Assembly: GCF_009931435.1 (NCBI RefSeq)
Contig: NZ_CP043414.1
From: Escherichia coli
GTDB lineage: Bacteria > Pseudomonadota > Gammaproteobacteria > Enterobacterales > Enterobacteriaceae
Length of the DNA: 64,000 nt
Direction: 5' to 3' (one strand)
In this document: one piece after another, positions 6,320 through 37,195 of the stretch
How positions within the stretch are numbered: the stretch's first letter is position 1
How the letters are laid out: each line of letters starts with the position of its first letter
Notes under the pieces: generated by a model
The model's input: only the letters and a program-made list of their open reading frames with translations
Told to the model about the DNA's origin: nothing
Database searches by the model: none
Made by a program: the position numbers and the translations under genes

Positions 6320-6353
6320 GCCCCGCCAGCTATAATCGCGGGGCTTCGTTTTT
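6320..6353 (+). terminator. Rho-independent terminator after ykgJ
   Basis: GC stem GCCCCGC / GCGGGGC with about 11-nt loop, followed by TTCGTTTTT, about 25 nt after the ykgJ stop. Confidence 0.5.
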
Positions 6354-6504
6354 CAGGGATAACAAAACCCGAAACTTCTTCCATCTGCCAGCAACAATGC
6401 CTCTTCCTCTATAGGGTTCTCCGGATCTACAGCATCCTGAAGTAGCGCGATGTACTCACTGGCTATCTGCATCAGAAAGTTAAAAACAATGTTTTTAACC
6501 TATA

Positions 6505-6531
6505 AAAATGGCGCTGTATTTGCGCCATTTT
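6505..6531. terminator. Bidirectional hairpin terminator between convergent ykgJ and yagU
   Basis: Perfect 10-bp inverted repeat AAAATGGCGC...GCGCCATTTT flanked by A-run and T-run; lies just downstream of the yagU stop (minus strand). Confidence 0.55.
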
Positions 6532-6545
6532 TATCATTCAATGCA

Positions 6546-19024: not shown

Positions 19025-19100
19025 TGGTGCCGATAATAGGAGTCGAACCTACGACCTTCGCATTACGAATGCGCTGCTCTACCAACTGAGCTATATCGGC
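19025..19100 (-). tRNA. thrW: tRNA-Thr (anticodon CGU)
   Basis: Reverse complement reads GCCGATATAGCTCAGTTGGTAGAGCAGCGCATTCGTAATGCGAAGGTCGTAGGTTCGACTCCTATTATCGGCACCA: 76 nt, cloverleaf arms, anticodon loop TTCGTAA, 3' CCA; downstream of proA as thrW is in E. coli. Confidence 0.9.
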
Positions 19101-25477: not shown

Positions 25478-26935
25478 GTGTCTGAACTGTCTCAATTATC
25501 TCCACAGCCGCTGTGGGATATTTTTGCCAAAATCTGTTCTATTCCTCACCCGTCCTATCATGAAGAGCAACTCGCTGAATACATTGTTGGTTGGGCAAAA
25601 GAGAAAGGTTTCCATGTCGAACGCGATCAGGTGGGTAATATCCTGATTCGTAAACCTGCTACCGCAGGTATGGAAAATCGTAAACCGGTCGTCTTACAGG
25701 CCCACCTCGATATGGTGCCGCAGAAAAATAACGACACCGTGCATGACTTCACTAAAGATCCTATCCAGCCTTATATTGATGGCGAATGGGTTAAAGCGCG
25801 CGGTACCACGCTGGGCGCGGATAACGGCATTGGTATGGCCTCTGCACTGGCGGTTCTGGCTGACGAAAACGTGGTTCACGGCCCGCTGGAAGTGCTGCTA
25901 ACCATGACCGAAGAAGCCGGTATGGACGGGGCGTTCGGCTTACAGAGCAACTGGTTGCAGGCTGATATTCTGATTAACACCGACTCCGAAGAAGAAGGTG
26001 AAATCTACATGGGTTGTGCTGGGGGTATCGACTTCACCTCCAACCTGCATTTAGATCGTGAAGCCGTTCCGGCTGGTTTTGAAACCTTCAAATTAACCTT
26101 AAAAGGTCTGAAAGGCGGTCACTCCGGCGGTGAAATCCACGTTGGCCTGGGTAACGCGAACAAACTGCTGGTGCGCTTCCTGGCGGGACATGCAGAAGAA
26201 CTGGACCTGCGTCTTATTGATTTCAACGGCGGCACACTGCGTAACGCCATCCCGCGTGAAGCCTTTGCGACCATCGCTGTCGCAGCTGATAAAGTCGACG
26301 CACTGAAAACGCTGGTGAATACCTATCAGGACATCCTGAAAAACGAGCTGGCAGAGAAAGAGAAAAATCTGGCCTTGTTGCTGGACTCTGTTGCGAACGA
26401 TAAAGCTGCCCTGATTGCGAAATCTCGCGATACCTTTATTCGTCTGCTGAACGCCACCCCGAACGGTGTGATCCGCAACTCCGACGTGGCAAAAGGTGTG
26501 GTTGAAACCTCCCTGAACGTCGGTGTCGTGACCATGACCGACAACAACGTAGAAATTCACTGTCTGATCCGTTCTCTGATCGACAGCGGTAAAGACTACG
26601 TGGTGAGCATGCTGGATTCGCTGGGTAAACTGGCTGGCGCGAAAACCGAAGCGAAAGGCGCATATCCTGGCTGGCAGCCGGACGCTAATTCTCCGGTGAT
26701 GCATCTGGTACGTGAAACCTATCAGCGCCTGTTCAACAAGACGCCGAACATCCAGATTATTCACGCGGGCCTGGAATGTGGTCTGTTCAAAAAACCGTAT
26801 CCGGAAATGGACATGGTTTCTATCGGGCCAACCATCACCGGTCCGCACTCTCCGGATGAGCAGGTTCACATCGAAAGCGTAGGCCATTACTGGACACTGC
26901 TGACTGAACTGCTGAAAGAAATTCCGGCGAAGTAA
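25478..26935 (+). CDS. pepD: PepD, cytosolic non-specific dipeptidase
   Basis: 485 aa with GTG start (AAGGAG SD upstream), recognised as PepD (SELSQLSPQPLWDIFAKICSIPHPSYHEEQ...). Confidence 0.95.
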   Translation: MSELSQLSPQPLWDIFAKICSIPHPSYHEEQLAEYIVGWAKEKGFHVERDQVGNILIRKPATAGMENRKPVVLQAHLDMVPQKNNDTVHDFTKDPIQPYIDGEWVKARGTTLGADNGIGMASALAVLADENVVHGPLEVLLTMTEEAGMDGAFGLQSNWLQADILINTDSEEEGEIYMGCAGGIDFTSNLHLDREAVPAGFETFKLTLKGLKGGHSGGEIHVGLGNANKLLVRFLAGHAEELDLRLIDFNGGTLRNAIPREAFATIAVAADKVDALKTLVNTYQDILKNELAEKEKNLALLLDSVANDKAALIAKSRDTFIRLLNATPNGVIRNSDVAKGVVETSLNVGVVTMTDNNVEIHCLIRSLIDSGKDYVVSMLDSLGKLAGAKTEAKGAYPGWQPDANSPVMHLVRETYQRLFNKTPNIQIIHAGLECGLFKKPYPEMDMVSIGPTITGPHSPDEQVHIESVGHYWTLLTELLKEIPAK

Positions 26936-26991
26936 TTTTTTGATTTGCTGCCGGATGGCGTTTGATCGTCTTCCGGCAGTTTCATCCTTTC

Positions 26992-27606
26992 TTATCCTTC
27001 GATAAAAGCCATCCCTGTAAACGTCCGTCGCGGGTTGCCACGTTCAATCTGGTGATGGAACATTCGCCGCTGCGATTTCAGCGCCGCGCTATTTTCCTGT
27101 TGCTGTTGCTCCAGCTTCCAGGCAATCAGCAATCGCGCCAGCCGTTTGTTGGCATGTTGGCTGCGCTCTGACTGAACCTTCACGCTAATCCCGGATGCCA
27201 GATGCGTGGCGCGTACCGCCGAGTCGGTTTTATTGACATGTTGACCGCCCGGCCCCGACGAACGCAGCGTCTCATAACGGATTGCATCCGATTGTTCCTG
27301 CTCATCAGCGGTAAAACGCCCAATGCCCAGAAACCAGTTTTTGCGCCCATGATGAGGCCGATACGGGCTTGGGCAAATCCACTGAATAGTGCCGCACCAA
27401 CTTTCGCTTAATGCCCATGCGTTATCGCCATCCAGAGAAATCAGCGCCGAACGCAGCGTGTCAGAGTAGCGGCCCGTTTCTGTTTCCAGCACCGTTACCG
27501 CGACGTCTTGTCGGGTAGCTTCTTTAATCAACCTGTCCAGCGCCTTTTTCACTGCGAGACAACATTCTTCCGGTCCCTGAGCTGAGGAGAGTTGCAGCAA
27601 GATCAT
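26992..27606 (-). CDS. prfH: PrfH, peptide chain release factor homolog (RF-H), apparently intact
   Basis: Track ORF 26992-27690; start set at in-frame ATG 27606 giving 204 aa ([21 protein letters not shown]...); contains GGQ motif ([17 protein letters not shown]); ATGA start/stop overlap with upstream rtcB-like gene. Confidence 0.8.
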
Positions 27607-28754
27607 CCTTTTTTCCCTCCACTGTTTTTGAGCGTCAGCACCGGACGCAGTCGCGCGGCAGGAATAATTAAACCGGCCTGCACCAGACATTGCACCACAC
27701 TTTCAGCCGATTTATAGGCTTGTGGCGCTTCTTCAAAGATGAGTTGTTTATCGCGACAAATTACCCGACCGCCAAGTTCAGTACGTGAGAGTTGCGTCGC
27801 CGTGTATTTCGCTGCCAGACGCCCTTTACACTCGGTGCGCCCCCATTTACGCCCTGCCCCATGCGCCAGTGAGTGAAGCGTTTTTTCGTTCGCAACAGGT
27901 TTAACCAGCCAGGAGTAATCACCGCGTGAACCGGGAATAATCACCAGACCGTTGTCATCCGGCGTAGCCCCTTTACGGTGTAACCATCCTTGTTGATCGC
28001 CGATTCGACATGCGCTAACAAAGTTATGCGCCACATCCAGAACCGAATTTCCGTTGGCCTTAACTTGTTGCATTATGCGCAAAGCGATCAGCTGGCGATT
28101 AATACGCGCAAACGCCAGCGCATCATCATGTTCCGCAATATAACTTAGCGCGTCGTCACTGCCTTCCGGCAAACCATGATGCGAAAACGAGGCAATATGC
28201 CGCTGTAAAATAGACTGCCCTAAACCACGCGAGCCGCTATGGACCAGCAGTTGCAGATGCTGCGCATCCAGACCTGACAGTGCAAACAGTTCCGCATCGA
28301 TGATTTGATCAATCTGTTGCAGTTCTGCAAAGTGGTTACCGCCACCGATAGAGCCAAGCGCGCAGCGCCACGGATGCTGTGCAAACGCTGACGGCAGGTT
28401 TTCCTCCAGCCAGCTTTCTTCAGCAACGTCATCCAGCGCAGATAATCGCTTTTCAAACTTATCGGCGTTGTATTTACGCGCGAGAATATCTGTTTGCCAT
28501 AGCGCCATACCGCAGCCGATATCATTGCCGACCAGTGCCGGGTAAAAACGGCCTACGGAGAAGAACGCTGCGCCAATCGGATAGCCGCGTCCTGGGTGTA
28601 AATCTGGCATCCCTACGACGCGTTGCATGTCGGGTAAATTTGCCGTGGTGTGTAATTGTTGGATCGCTGAACTCTCGATCCACAGGTCATCAGATGCGAT
28701 GGTAAATACCGCATCGGATAAGGGACGAATATATTTGCCCATGTACCATTCCAT
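27603..28754 (-). CDS. RtcB-family RNA ligase paralog (RtcB2/YkfJ), apparently intact
   Basis: 383 aa; RtcB-like motifs ([34 protein letters not shown]); translationally coupled to prfH. Start could be the fifth codon. Confidence 0.8.
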
Positions 28755-29059
28755 TTATACTCGTCATACTTCAAGTTGCATGTACTGCGACTGCGTTCGT
28801 TCACCCCAGTCACTTACTTTAGTAAGCTCCTGGGGATTCACTCGCTTGTCGCCTTCCTGCAACTCGAATTATTTAGAGTATATAAATATAAAAATCAGGA
28901 AATGGCAGACGAATCCAGGGCAAGAAAAAAAGAATTAATCCTGGAAAGGTCTGCAAAGAGTCATTGATAAAGGATTTTTCATGATTTACCTCCTTGCAGT
29001 TTGTGGAATAAGAAAACGCGCACATATTAGGCGGGCGTTATTTTCATTGCAAGCTGGAT

Positions 29060-29512
29060 TTAGTGTTGCGGTTTATATCGCATATGAAAATTAGTAAACC
29101 ACGCTCCCCGGCATTCAACGCGCTGCTGCTTAACTGTCTGAAAACCATAACGTTCAAAAAAGGGTTTTGCGGTTATGCTGGCATCTACCGTAAGTTCGGA
29201 TTCAGACTTAATCAAAGGTTTTAACAAAGCGCTGGCAACCCCGCAGCGGTTGTATTTCGGATCAACAAATAACATATCGATATAATGCTCAATGCAGGTA
29301 ATAAAGCCGACCAGTTGTGTATTAATCACCGCAACCCGCACTTGTGATTTCGCGAGTTTCTCTTTCCATCGATGTTCATCAATCTGCGCCCAGGCGGCAA
29401 TTTGTTGTGGTGAATAATGCTGACTGGCGGTCATCGTAACCGCTCTAATAAAAATAGCGCATAGCTGCTGAAAATCGCCAGGCTGATAGTCTCTTATTTG
29501 TATATTATTCAT
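29060..29512 (-). CDS. yafP: YafP, GNAT-family acetyltransferase
   Basis: 150 aa recognised as YafP ([21 protein letters not shown]...); ATGA overlap with dinB stop. Confidence 0.85.
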
Positions 29513-30634: not shown

Positions 30635-31400
30635 TTAACGCGTTCGCTGCGAAAGCACCTGCTGCTTATCCAGCTTTTTCACCAGCGGCTGCACCACCTT
30701 ATCCCCATGCTGACCAAAATATTGATACAACGTATCAGACGCGCTTTTGGTGAGCACCATAATCTCAATGCGCCGGTTACCCGCACTTTGCGGATTTTTC
30801 GTGTCCAGCAGCATCTGGTCCGCCATTGCGCTCACCTGCATCACTTTATCTTCCGGCATCCCGGCCTCTTCCAGCACCCGACGAGCCGAGAGCGCACGAT
30901 CGCCCGAAAGGTTCCAGTTGTTGTAGATATTGCTTTTATAGGCCATCGCATCGGTATGCCCGGTAATAATAATTTTGTTATCGAGCGAGTCGAATACCGG
31001 CGCGAGCTCCACCAGCAGAGTTTTAAAGAACGGCATAATCTTCGCGCTGCCGCGTTCAAACATATTGCGGTTCTGGTCATCTTTAATCAGCACGCGTAAT
31101 CCCTGCGGGACAATCTCCATCTCCAGATTGGCTTCCATATGCGCATCGCGGGCGATGGTGTTGATACTGGTCGCCAGCTCGCCAAGCTCAGTGGCGGACT
31201 TCTTCTTCAGTAGCGCCGTTTTCTCGTTGACGTCGCGGGCTTTTTTCTCCGTCTCTTCCGGCACCGCCACGGTGGCAGGTTTCAGCGGATGCGTCGGGCT
31301 GATTTTATTTAACGGCGATAGCCCGCCGCCATTGAAAATCGACTGCCCGTGCAGCGCGGCGATAATGCTTTCACGCTCGGATTTACTGACGCTGTTGACA
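30635..31400 (-). pseudogene. lafU: lafU (Flag-2 MotB-like) fragment, N-terminally truncated
   Basis: Track ORF 30635-31552; MotB-like OmpA C-terminal domain (ITGHTDAMAYKSNIYNNWNLSGDRALSARRVLEEAG) but no proper TM/N-terminus; its 5' part is antisense to the lfhA fragment. Boundary approximate. Confidence 0.6.
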
Positions 31401-33104
31401 ATCAACTTTATTGTCGTCACCAAAGGGGCTGAGCGTATTTCCGAGGTTTCTGCCCGCTTTACCCTGGACGCGATGCCCGGCAAGCAAATGGCGATTGACG
31501 CCGATCTTAACGCCGGGTTGATCAACCAGGCGCAGGCGCAGACCCGCCGCAAAGATGTTGCCAGCGAGGCCGATTTCTACGGCGCGATGGACGGGGCATC
31601 GAAGTTTGTGCGCGGGGATGCCATCGCCGGGATGATGATTCTGGCGATCAACCTGATTGGCGGCGTTTGTATCGGGATCTTCAAATACAACCTGAGCGCC
31701 GATGCCGCCTTCCAGCAATATGTGCTGATGACCATCGGCGACGGCCTGGTGGCGCAGATCCCGTCCCTGCTGCTTTCCACCGCGGCGGCGATTATCGTCA
31801 CCCGCGTCAGCGACAACGGCGATATTGCCCATGACGTGCGCCACCAGTTGCTGGCAAGCCCGTCGGTGCTCTACACCGCCACCGGGATTATGTTCGTGCT
31901 GGCGGTGGTGCCGGGAATGCCGCACTTCCCGTTCCTGATGTTCAGCGCCCTGCTTGGTTTTACCGGCTGGCGAATGAGCAAACGCCCGCAGGCGGCGGAG
32001 GCGGAAGAGAAAAGCCTCGAAACGCTGACCCGCACCATCACTGAAACCAGCGATCAACAGGTCAGTTGGGAAACCATTCCGCTGATCGAGCCCATCAGTT
32101 TAAGCCTCGGTTACAAGCTGGTGGCGCTGGTGGACAAAGCGCAGGGCAACCCGCTCACCCAGCGTATTCGCGGCGTGCGGCAGGTGATTTCCGACGGCAA
32201 CGGCGTGCTGCTGCCGGAGATCCGCATTCGGGAAAACTTCCGCCTCAAGCCCAGCCAGTACGCCATTTTCATCAACGGCATTAAGGCTGATGAAGCGGAT
32301 ATTCCGGCGGATAAACTGATGGCCCTGCCCTCCAGCGAAACCTACGGCGAGATTGACGGCGTGCTGGGGAACGACCCGGCGTACGGGATGCCGGTGACCT
32401 GGATTCAGCCCGCGCAGAAGGCGAAGGCGCTGAATATGGGGTATCAGGTGATCGACAGCGCCAGCGTAATTGCCACGCATGTGAATAAGATTGTGCGCAG
32501 CTATATTCCTGATTTGTTTAACTATGACGATATTACTCAGCTGCATAACCGTTTGTCGTCAATGGCACCGCGCCTGGCAGAGGATTTGAGTGCGGCGCTG
32601 AATTACAGCCAGTTGCTGAAAGTGTACCGGGCACTGCTGACCGAAGGCGTTTCCCTGCGCGATATCGTCACCATCGCCACCGTGCTGGTCGCCAGTAGCA
32701 CCGTCACCAAAGATCATATTCTGCTGGCGGCCGATGTGCGCCTGGCACTGCGGCGCAGCATTACCCATCCGTTCGTTCGCAAGCAGGAGCTGACGGTGTA
32801 TACGCTGAATAATGAGCTGGAAAATCTGCTGACCAACGTGGTGAATCAGGCGCAACAGGCCGGCAAAGTGATGCTCGATAGCGTGCCGGTTGACCCAAAT
32901 ATGCTCAACCAGTTCCAGAGCACGATGCCGCAGGTGAAGGAGCAGATGAAAGCGGCAGGTAAAGACCCGGTGCTGCTGGTGCCGCCGCAGCTGCGCCCGT
33001 TGCTGGCGCGTTATGCGAGGTTATTTGCGCCGGGGTTGCATGTGCTGTCGTATAACGAAGTGCCGGACGAGCTGGAGTTGAAGATTATGGGGGCGTTGAG
33101 TTGA
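31401..33104 (+). pseudogene. lfhA: lfhA (Flag-2 FlhA-like) fragment lacking its N-terminal membrane region
   Basis: Track ORF 30975-33104; FlhA similarity begins about codon 143 (INFIVVTKGAERISEVSARFTLDAMPGKQMAIDADLNAG), earlier codons are antisense of lafU; no promoter or start at the homology onset. Boundary approximate. Confidence 0.6.
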
Positions 33105-37049: not shown

Positions 37050-37195
37050 TTTTCAGGTCGGATGCGGCGTGAATGCATTATTCGGCCTACGGTTCGGGTA
37101 CAGATTTGTAGGCATGATAAGACGCGTCAGCGTCGCATCAGGCATCAGCGCACAAGTGCCGGATGCGGCGTAAACGCCTTATCCAGCCTACGCCA
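37050..37195. repeat. REP/BIME cluster (three REP palindromes)
   Basis: Three copies of the REP motif (GTCGGATGCGGCGTGAATGCATTATTCGGCCTAC; GTAGGCATGATAAGACGCGTCAGCGTCGCATCAGGC; GCCGGATGCGGCGTAAACGCCTTATCCAGCCTAC) in alternating orientation between yafJ and gmhA. Confidence 0.65.

Follow-up and report, generated by a model that had tools for sequence, protein, structure and literature searches.

An intact rtcB2-prfH operon of Escherichia coli and the conserved leader element upstream of it

Introduction

What is the function of an undamaged pair of rtcB-like and prfH genes at a locus that is broken in Escherichia coli K-12, and how would the expression of such a pair be controlled? The pair lies in a 64,000-nucleotide stretch of an E. 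coli genome (assembly GCF_009931435.1, contig NZ_CP043414.1), called the window below. An initial annotation had proposed that it forms a ribosome or rRNA repair or rescue module, on which experimental work was believed to be limited. The functional proposal is correct and is already established knowledge, having been demonstrated for the E. coli pair (PMC9304027, PMC9223846, PMC13166195). The view of the experimental record does not hold: published work covers a 2.55-Å cryo-EM structure, assays of peptide release and ligation in vitro, and knockouts together with complementation, and a description of the coupling and of the K-12 deletion appeared as early as 2006.

In that early study, the genes were described as a two-gene operon whose close or overlapping stop and start codons were read as translational coupling, and K-12 and O157:H7 were found to lack ~1,000 nt that CFT073 has (Baranov et al. 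2006, PMC1586002). E. coli PrfH (EcPrfH) was later shown to free peptide only from 70S ribosomes with 16S rRNA cut between A1493 and G1494, the activity not being seen on intact ribosomes, and a 2.55-Å cryo-EM structure revealed how it recognizes the 3′-phosphorylated A1493 (Tian et al. 2022, PMC9304027). In the same work, EcRtcB2 re-ligated cut 30S subunits and repaired less than 2% of cut tRNAs, the opposite of EcRtcB1, and the EcRtcB2-EcPrfH pair reversed colicin E3-like toxicity in vivo, an effect that was abolished or reduced by the Q122E and H294N mutations. The chromosomal operon of strain ATCC 25922 protects against colicin E3 and not against colicins D or E5, whereas K-12 BW25113, with its truncated operon, is unprotected against colicin E3 (Maviza et al. 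2022, PMC9223846). Two papers from 2026 refine the roles of PrfH and RtcB2 and define a longer PrfH-CT subfamily. The gene pair itself is known and common and adds nothing new, being one more intact copy of a characterized anti-ribotoxin ribosome repair system. Only the leader element that precedes it merits further study.

Organization of the rtcB2-prfH locus

Both genes are encoded on the minus strand, rtcB2 (RtcB-family RNA ligase coupled to release factor H, RF-H) at 27603..28742 and prfH (peptide chain release factor H) at 26992..27606. They are located, as had been reported, between pepD (25478..26935, plus strand) and yafP (29060..29512, minus strand). Neither open reading frame (ORF) contains an internal stop or a frameshift, of the kind that might have been missed by eye, which bears out the description of the pair as intact and full-length. 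PrfH has 204 residues, with the expected GGQ motif at positions 120-122.

The length of 383 aa that was first given for RtcB2 corresponds to the longest ORF (27603..28754), which opens with an ATG at 28754. The second ATG, at 28742, yields a protein of 379 aa and is the start annotated by RefSeq in three other E. coli loci; the NCBIfam model aligns from residue 5 of the 383-aa form onwards, and it is in the 379-aa form that the catalytic histidine takes its published number, 294. The upstream ATG was rejected as a start codon, as it sits in a conserved nucleotide motif, ATGGAWTGG, in the 3′ arm of a predicted RNA helix (helix B, see below), and the equivalent ATG is out of frame in Pseudomonas.

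The junction of the two genes reads GGAGGGAAAAAAGGATGATC on the minus strand. The prfH ATG (27606-27604) overlaps the rtcB2 TGA (27605-27603), confirming the ATGA overlap (27603..27606) noticed earlier, and a GGAGG sequence is found 9 nt upstream. Such an overlap would be expected to couple the translation of RtcB2 and PrfH. An overlap of 4 nt is likewise annotated in Salmonella, Citrobacter, Klebsiella, Cronobacter, Pragia, and Kosakonia, while the junction is a 1-nt overlap in Pseudomonas and a 2-nt gap in Providencia. The placement of rtcB2 immediately upstream of prfH recurs in eight other genera, and both the adjacency and the coupling of the genes hold in two classes of Proteobacteria.

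Identity of the encoded proteins

RtcB2 scored 636.2 bits against NCBIfam NF007153 (cut-off 407) and 617.5 bits against TIGR03073, ‘release_rtcB’ (cut-off 271.8), and matches the RF-H-coupled equivalog model, not generic RtcB. The metal ligands and the guanylylated histidine are all present (Asp74, Cys77, His137, His168, His239, and His294) and fall in the motifs NDIGCG, GNHF, VHSGSRG, AHN, and HGAGR, the last containing His294. These motifs align with those of P. horikoshii and T. thermophilus RtcB, and the ligands and His294 are invariant in a 14-sequence alignment. RtcB1, encoded by the sigma54-dependent rtcBA operon, shares the fold family (PF01139) and the ligation chemistry, but is only ~28% identical (Tian et al. 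2022, PMC9304027), has the opposite substrate range, and differs in its partner, rtcA, and in its regulation.

PrfH scored 328.9 bits against TIGR03072 (cut-off 166.65) and is identical at 203 of 204 residues to chain 8 of PDB 7SA4, ‘Peptide chain release factor H’, from a ribosome-bound cryo-EM structure. It retains the published contact residues R52, S53, R83, H85, H86, R88, K89, N90, R181, H184, and R189, which form the pocket for the A1493 3′-phosphate and the contacts with h18, S12, and H69; the catalytic Q122 is kept as well. Domain 1 of RF1/RF2 is lacking, and the protein aligns to domains 2-4, approximately residues 115-308 of RF2 chains. Assignment to the PrfH-CT subfamily (225-250 aa), the only PrfH proteins that act on intact stalled ribosomes, was considered and rejected. 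The Capnocytophaga gingivalis PrfH-CT protein (PDB 9MOR/9MQ4) has the GGQ domain and the rRNA-recognition domain in common with the window PrfH (E = 2.5e-40 to 9MOR_A), but the latter is without the basic C-terminal tail and ends where EcPrfH ends, at 204 rather than 231 aa. Since the tail is missing, the window PrfH is expected to act on cut ribosomes only.

The closest characterized system is the E. coli RtcB2-PrfH pair of the ATCC 25922/CFT073 type (Baranov 2006; Tian 2022; Maviza 2022 and 2026), which the window matches in location, gene order, the 4-nt overlap, the near-identity of PrfH to 7SA4 chain 8 and, with respect to published features, the length, catalytic residues, and His294 numbering of RtcB2. 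It differs in that the window RtcB2 is a rare allele, with DNA 94-95% identical to most E. coli and 13-22 residue differences from two common alleles, that a full-length enterobacterial repetitive intergenic consensus (ERIC) element is present upstream, and that yafN-yafO are absent.

The mechanism has been demonstrated in the literature for near-identical E. coli proteins. Toxins of the colicin E3 and CdiA-CT type cut 16S rRNA between A1493 and G1494, and the ribosome stalls. PrfH, having no domain 1 and reading no codon, enters the A site of the cut ribosome only, where R83, H86, R88, and R189 recognize the 3′-phosphorylated A1493 and the GGQ motif, through Q122, hydrolyses the peptidyl-tRNA. 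After separation of the subunits, RtcB2 rejoins the two 16S fragments within the 30S subunit through a His294-GMP intermediate, and is inactive on cut tRNAs. Judged from the sequence features above, the window locus is very probably a working RtcB2-PrfH operon for ribosome rescue and repair, with a predicted promoter of its own and a putative controlling leader.

Distribution of the locus and the K-12 deletion

Comparison with K-12 agreed with the claim that the locus is a pseudogene there: the annotation (NZ_CP009644) labels the RtcB gene ‘missing C-terminus’ and prfH ‘missing N-terminus’. The responsible deletion removes 1,018 bp across the rtcB2/prfH junction, between short GCCGGGTA-like repeats, and spans window positions 27518..28535 (BLAST breakpoints 27517|28536). 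K-12, O157:H7, and roughly half of E. coli have lost the segment, which 2,714 of 5,426 complete genomes keep. Recurrent deletion through the 8-bp repeat was considered and rejected, as an identical junction was found in all five deleted loci (K-12, O157:H7, and three others). This common junction points to one ancestral deletion event. Two of the five loci carry a further deletion of 166 bp inside prfH.

The gene order dinB-(yafP)-rtcB2-prfH-pepD is kept in Salmonella, Citrobacter, Klebsiella, Cronobacter, and Kosakonia, and the locus is therefore ancestral in the family and not an island. The window allele is rare, with only nine records at least 99% identical over the segment deleted in K-12, most others being 93-95% identical. 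PrfH is identical to the proteins of two other intact E. coli loci and differs at 0-3 residues across related loci; in RtcB2, between 6 and 22 of the 379 residues differ from those encoded at other intact E. coli loci, always outside the catalytic sites. As the DNA of rtcB2 and prfH has diverged by 4-6% across related loci with so few residue changes, the comparison indicates that both genes have been under purifying selection.

A conserved leader ORF upstream of rtcB2

The 305-nt spacer between yafP and rtcB2, which lies outside the segment treated in the initial annotation, contains a 15-codon leader ORF, MKNPLSMTLCRPFQD, on the minus strand (28982..28935), 240 nt upstream of rtcB2. It is preceded by a Shine-Dalgarno site, AAGGAGGT (28988..28995, minus strand), with a spacing of 7 nt. 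All eight E. coli loci that were compared have the ORF intact, K-12 included, where it lies upstream of ykfJ (NZ_CP009644, around 254570-254620). In a survey of 88 RtcB2-homologue loci from Enterobacterales, Pseudomonas, and Betaproteobacteria, 83 were found to have an equivalent ORF, in most cases 13-15 codons long, that follows a Shine-Dalgarno site and encodes the core [LIVM]-C-[R/G/K]. The conservation is largely at the nucleotide level; among 82 distinct leaders, the core leucine is encoded by CTT in 79 and the cysteine by TGC in all 82.

In P. aeruginosa PA7 the corresponding ORF is MIQFSTLCRLRLA, located at -254, with 13 codons and with Gln3 and Phe4 as published for the leader peptide PA5471.1; it has the core CTTTGCAG(A/G) in common with MKNPLSMTLCRPFQD. 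Since the PA7 ORF has the published properties of PA5471.1, the E. coli ORF is, on sequence grounds, a homologue of that leader peptide. Both in E. coli and in the P. aeruginosa PA5471.1-armZ(PA5471)-PA5470 operon, a strong Shine-Dalgarno site precedes a short leader ORF that encodes the core TLCR, and a segment further downstream pairs with the C-R codons; a GGAUUGG ribosome-binding motif and an upstream, promoter-like TTGnnn-N17-TAnnnT motif are also common to both. The two systems differ in leader length (15 codons in E. coli, 13 in P. aeruginosa) and in the distance from leader to gene (112 nt, or 240 nt with the ERIC element, as against ~250 nt). A terminator hairpin was not detected in E. 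coli, where regulation is predicted only. In P. aeruginosa, the PA5471.1 element has been described as part of MexXY regulation, the RtcB homologue ArmZ de-repressing the efflux pump. E. coli is not known to have a MexZ/MexXY target or partner for an ArmZ-like role. A description of an E. coli leader, or of a general rtcB2-prfH leader, was not found in the literature searched, and a leader is mentioned in neither of two key RtcB2-PrfH papers. Rfam has no family covering the leader in the window, in an E. coli locus free of ERIC, or in the Salmonella or Pseudomonas loci.

A scan of 26850-29150 for sigma-70 promoters returned nothing at threshold. A weaker, conserved promoter-like site emerged only through comparison of loci; it occupies 29024..29052 on the minus strand, with a -35 element TTGCAA (29052-29047), a 17-nt spacer, and a -10 element TAATAT (29029-29024), and scores 8/12, below the scan threshold. 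From this site, transcription is predicted to start about 7 nt after 29024. In 78 of the 82 distinct leaders, a TTGnnn-N16-18-TAnnnT motif precedes the leader ATG by 36-62 nt, and its spacer is 17 nt long in 74 of these 78.

Predicted RNA helices and proposed control of the operon

Three minus-strand helices are predicted around the leader. In helix 0, the Shine-Dalgarno flank CTGCAAGG (28992-28999) pairs with CTTTGCAG within the leader ORF (28951-28958); its pairing sequence is invariant across genera, no covariation signal being possible, and the pairing is seen in single-sequence folds. Helix A (28905..28954), identified by RNAalifold and pair counts, is formed by GCAGAC in leader codons 10-12 (28949-28954) and GTCTGC (28905-28910). 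[quoted passage not shown] Because helix 0 shares the sequence GCAG with helix A, the two would be mutually exclusive. Helix B (28745..28906), obtained with the same methods, is formed by GCCATTTCC (28898-28906) and GGAATGGT (28745-28752), the latter being the conserved ribosome-binding region that immediately precedes the rtcB2 start codon (28742).

Pairing in helix A is possible in 93-94% of alignment cells, and compensatory changes (AU to GC, CG to UA) are present at three of the six pairs. For helix B, 82-92% of cells are paired, compared to 18-48% when the partners are slid, with compensatory CG to UA and AU to UA changes. In a MAFFT alignment of 21 genera, made without fitting to a model, 90.9% of the cells of helices A and B together are paired (18-44% when slid), and 18 cells carry double changes, compared to 7.5 ± 2.2 after shuffling, a number reached in none of 500 shuffles. 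The corresponding values in an 84-sequence alignment, which was fitted to a covariance model and so leans towards the structure, are 88.1% paired and 65 double-change cells, compared to 25.7 ± 4.0 (0 of 500 shuffles), the sequences within both alignments being related. The covariance model detects the leader element in 84 of 90 sources. Changes from R to G in the leader peptide come with matching changes in the downstream segment.

The terminator scan found no intrinsic terminator on the minus strand between 28755 and 28935, and the U-run at 28888-28896 adjoins no stem; helix B suggests translational control instead of transcription attenuation. The operon would have its own promoter and a PA5471.1-like leader ORF set in conserved helices, one of which would mask the rtcB2 ribosome-binding site. 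With such a leader and a masking helix, impaired translation would probably switch rtcB2-prfH on. Reportedly, in work by Morita in 2009, blocked leader translation in P. aeruginosa led to constitutive expression. Ten leaders were folded at equilibrium while a ribosome mask of 28 nt was moved stepwise over the leader ORF; this simple model revealed no consistent change in the accessibility of the rtcB2 ribosome-binding site and no ON state. The K-12 gene ykfJ was reported to be inducible by 4-azaleucine in a 2012 review (PMC3516279), which fits a leader-control model.

From the conservation of the leader with rtcB2-prfH across Enterobacterales, Pseudomonas, and Betaproteobacteria, and its retention in K-12 beside a defunct operon, we lean somewhat towards the reading that the repair operon is controlled by a sensor of the very defect it mends, being induced by damaged or stalled ribosomes, through an element described for P. 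aeruginosa only in the literature searched. If the leader acts as it does in Pseudomonas, this would account for how a system that mends rare, lethal damage to ribosomes stays off until it is needed. It would also link the literatures on ArmZ/MexXY antibiotic induction in Pseudomonas and on RtcB2-PrfH repair in E. coli, which barely cite each other, and the leader would offer a simple reporter for ribosome damage.

The ERIC element in the helix B loop

A 129-nt imperfect palindrome (28759..28887) is situated in the loop of helix B and folds into a hairpin of -57.9 kcal/mol (z = -9.35). We take it to be an ERIC element, as it contains the ERIC1R and ERIC2 primer sequences. It behaves as an ERIC element, typically of ~127 bp, would: it is an intergenic imperfect palindrome, exists in many copies per genome, and varies in presence by strain. 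The median number of matching places per genome was six, because extra ERIC copies are present in every genome. Among the E. coli loci compared, the element is absent from one (L003), has a short form in three (L004, L005, and L007), and is present in another whose genes are intact (L002). By folding on itself, and so keeping the arms of helix B adjacent, the insertion may be structurally neutral; an insertion of 129 nt within the leader could alter expression. The sole Rfam hit in the region is a sub-threshold match to V_AS5.

Alternative readings of the locus

The homology of the leader to PA5471.1, which senses antibiotic stalling of ribosomes in P. aeruginosa, raises the question of whether the main role of the module is a general response to translation stress, for example to drug-stalled ribosomes, and not defence against colicins. 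The 4-azaleucine induction of ykfJ would suit such a role (PMC3516279), as would the activity of PA5470, which relieves macrolide stalling in P. aeruginosa and is reported to free azithromycin-stalled ribosomes. However, EcPrfH releases peptide from cut ribosomes and was not seen to do so on intact ones (PMC9304027). Action on intact ribosomes is limited to PrfH-CT proteins of 225-250 aa, and the window PrfH has 204. As far as is generally known, E. coli is also without the mexXY/mexZ partner that an ArmZ-like function calls for, and translation stress is considered unlikely to be the main role. Another reading is that the undamaged genes have in effect fallen silent or are decaying in this lineage, heading for the loss seen in K-12, perhaps because of the ERIC insertion or the rare RtcB2 substitutions. 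Half of E. coli is without the operon, some strains carry secondary deletions, the window allele is rare, and its ERIC element sits within the leader and separates it from the ribosome-binding site. This proposal is nevertheless highly improbable: DNA divergence of 4-6% against 0-3 residue differences in PrfH and 6-22 in RtcB2 argues for purifying selection, the catalytic residues are unchanged, and the ERIC element folds on itself and is also found at the intact locus L002.

That RtcB2 might instead serve in the repair of tRNA or mRNA, as a ligase of the RtcB1 (rtcBA) kind, with PrfH as an unrelated neighbour, is scarcely credible. The two ligases do belong to the same family, PF01139, with catalytic motifs in common, but their substrate preferences are reversed, EcRtcB2 having repaired 30S subunits and hardly any cut tRNAs (PMC9304027), and the operon gave no protection against colicins D and E5 (PMC9223846). 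The equivalog match, together with adjacency and coupling that persist in two proteobacterial classes, likewise favours the ribosome rescue and repair operon, in which the ligase and the release factor work as a pair.

Adjacent elements

The dinB operon adjoining the locus lacks yafN-yafO in the window. At the other end, a hairpin, CTGCCGGA...TCCGGCAG (26948..26979; -17.9 kcal/mol, z = -4.46), lies between the convergent prfH and pepD genes; it was not called by the terminator scan, and is possibly a terminator that both genes share, or else a REP-like element.

The leader upstream of rtcB2

A 15-codon leader ORF, MKNPLSMTLCRPFQD (28935-28982, minus strand), lies upstream of rtcB2, carries a strong Shine-Dalgarno site, and is homologous to PA5471.1 of P. 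aeruginosa. It is kept in 83 of the 88 RtcB2 loci examined, and is also still found in K-12. The covarying helices around this ORF span 28745-28999, and one of them pairs with the rtcB2 ribosome-binding site. No description of the E. coli version of the leader ORF was found in the literature that could be searched.

A full-length enterobacterial repetitive intergenic consensus (ERIC) repeat, which contains the ERIC1R and ERIC2 primer sequences, occupies 28759-28887 and separates the leader from the start of rtcB2; it sits within the loop of helix B (28898-28906 paired with 28745-28752). Among the other E. coli loci compared, L003 has no ERIC at this site, while L004, L005, and L007 carry a short form with approximately 64 bp less. 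An ERIC-like insert is present at the equivalent place in Klebsiella loci L011 and L028.

Decay and possible fusion of the rtcB2-prfH pair

A second deletion, of 166 bp, was found in the prfH remnant (equivalent to window 27157-27322) of L006 and L007, both of which had already undergone the K-12-type deletion across the rtcB2/prfH junction. This second loss shows the continuing decay of a dead operon. RtcB (PF01139) and RF-1 (PF00472) domains occur together in a single chain in two database proteins, P0003 of 522 aa and P0043 of 583 aa. These may be genuine fusions of RtcB2 with PrfH, or they may be artefacts of a frameshift or of assembly where the two genes overlap by ATGA.

Neighbouring genes and genomic setting

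The genes pepD and prfH converge on a hairpin with an 8-bp stem, CTGCCGGA...TCCGGCAG (26948-26979; z = -4.46), which is possibly a terminator serving both genes or else a REP-like element. On the other side of the pair, the stop codon of dinB and the start codon of yafP overlap at 29509-29512, and the yafN-yafO toxin-antitoxin pair, which lies between these two genes in K-12, is therefore absent from the window, as it is from L002, L004, and L006. The segment at 30635-33104 is what is left of the lateral flagellar cluster Flag-2, in which an N-terminally truncated FlhA-like ORF is overlapped by a lafU-like ORF, the same arrangement as in K-12. In L002, which at the rtcB2 locus is the strain closest to the window, lafU still has motA and a gene for a FliA-type sigma factor beside it.

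No close match to the window was found among 5,426 complete E. coli genomes. The best identity to these genomes was 98.7% at bases 1-24000 and approximately 94-95% at 31000-55000, and the window seems to represent a rarely sequenced Escherichia lineage, or a mosaic.

Rfam matches, taken above the gathering score, comprised IS009 (6340-6540) and naRNA4, a REP-derived nucleoid-associated RNA (37111-37188); like the tRNA-Thr(CGU) gene at 19025-19100, both are on the minus strand. The tRNA gene is presumably thrW, which in K-12 is a prophage integration site.
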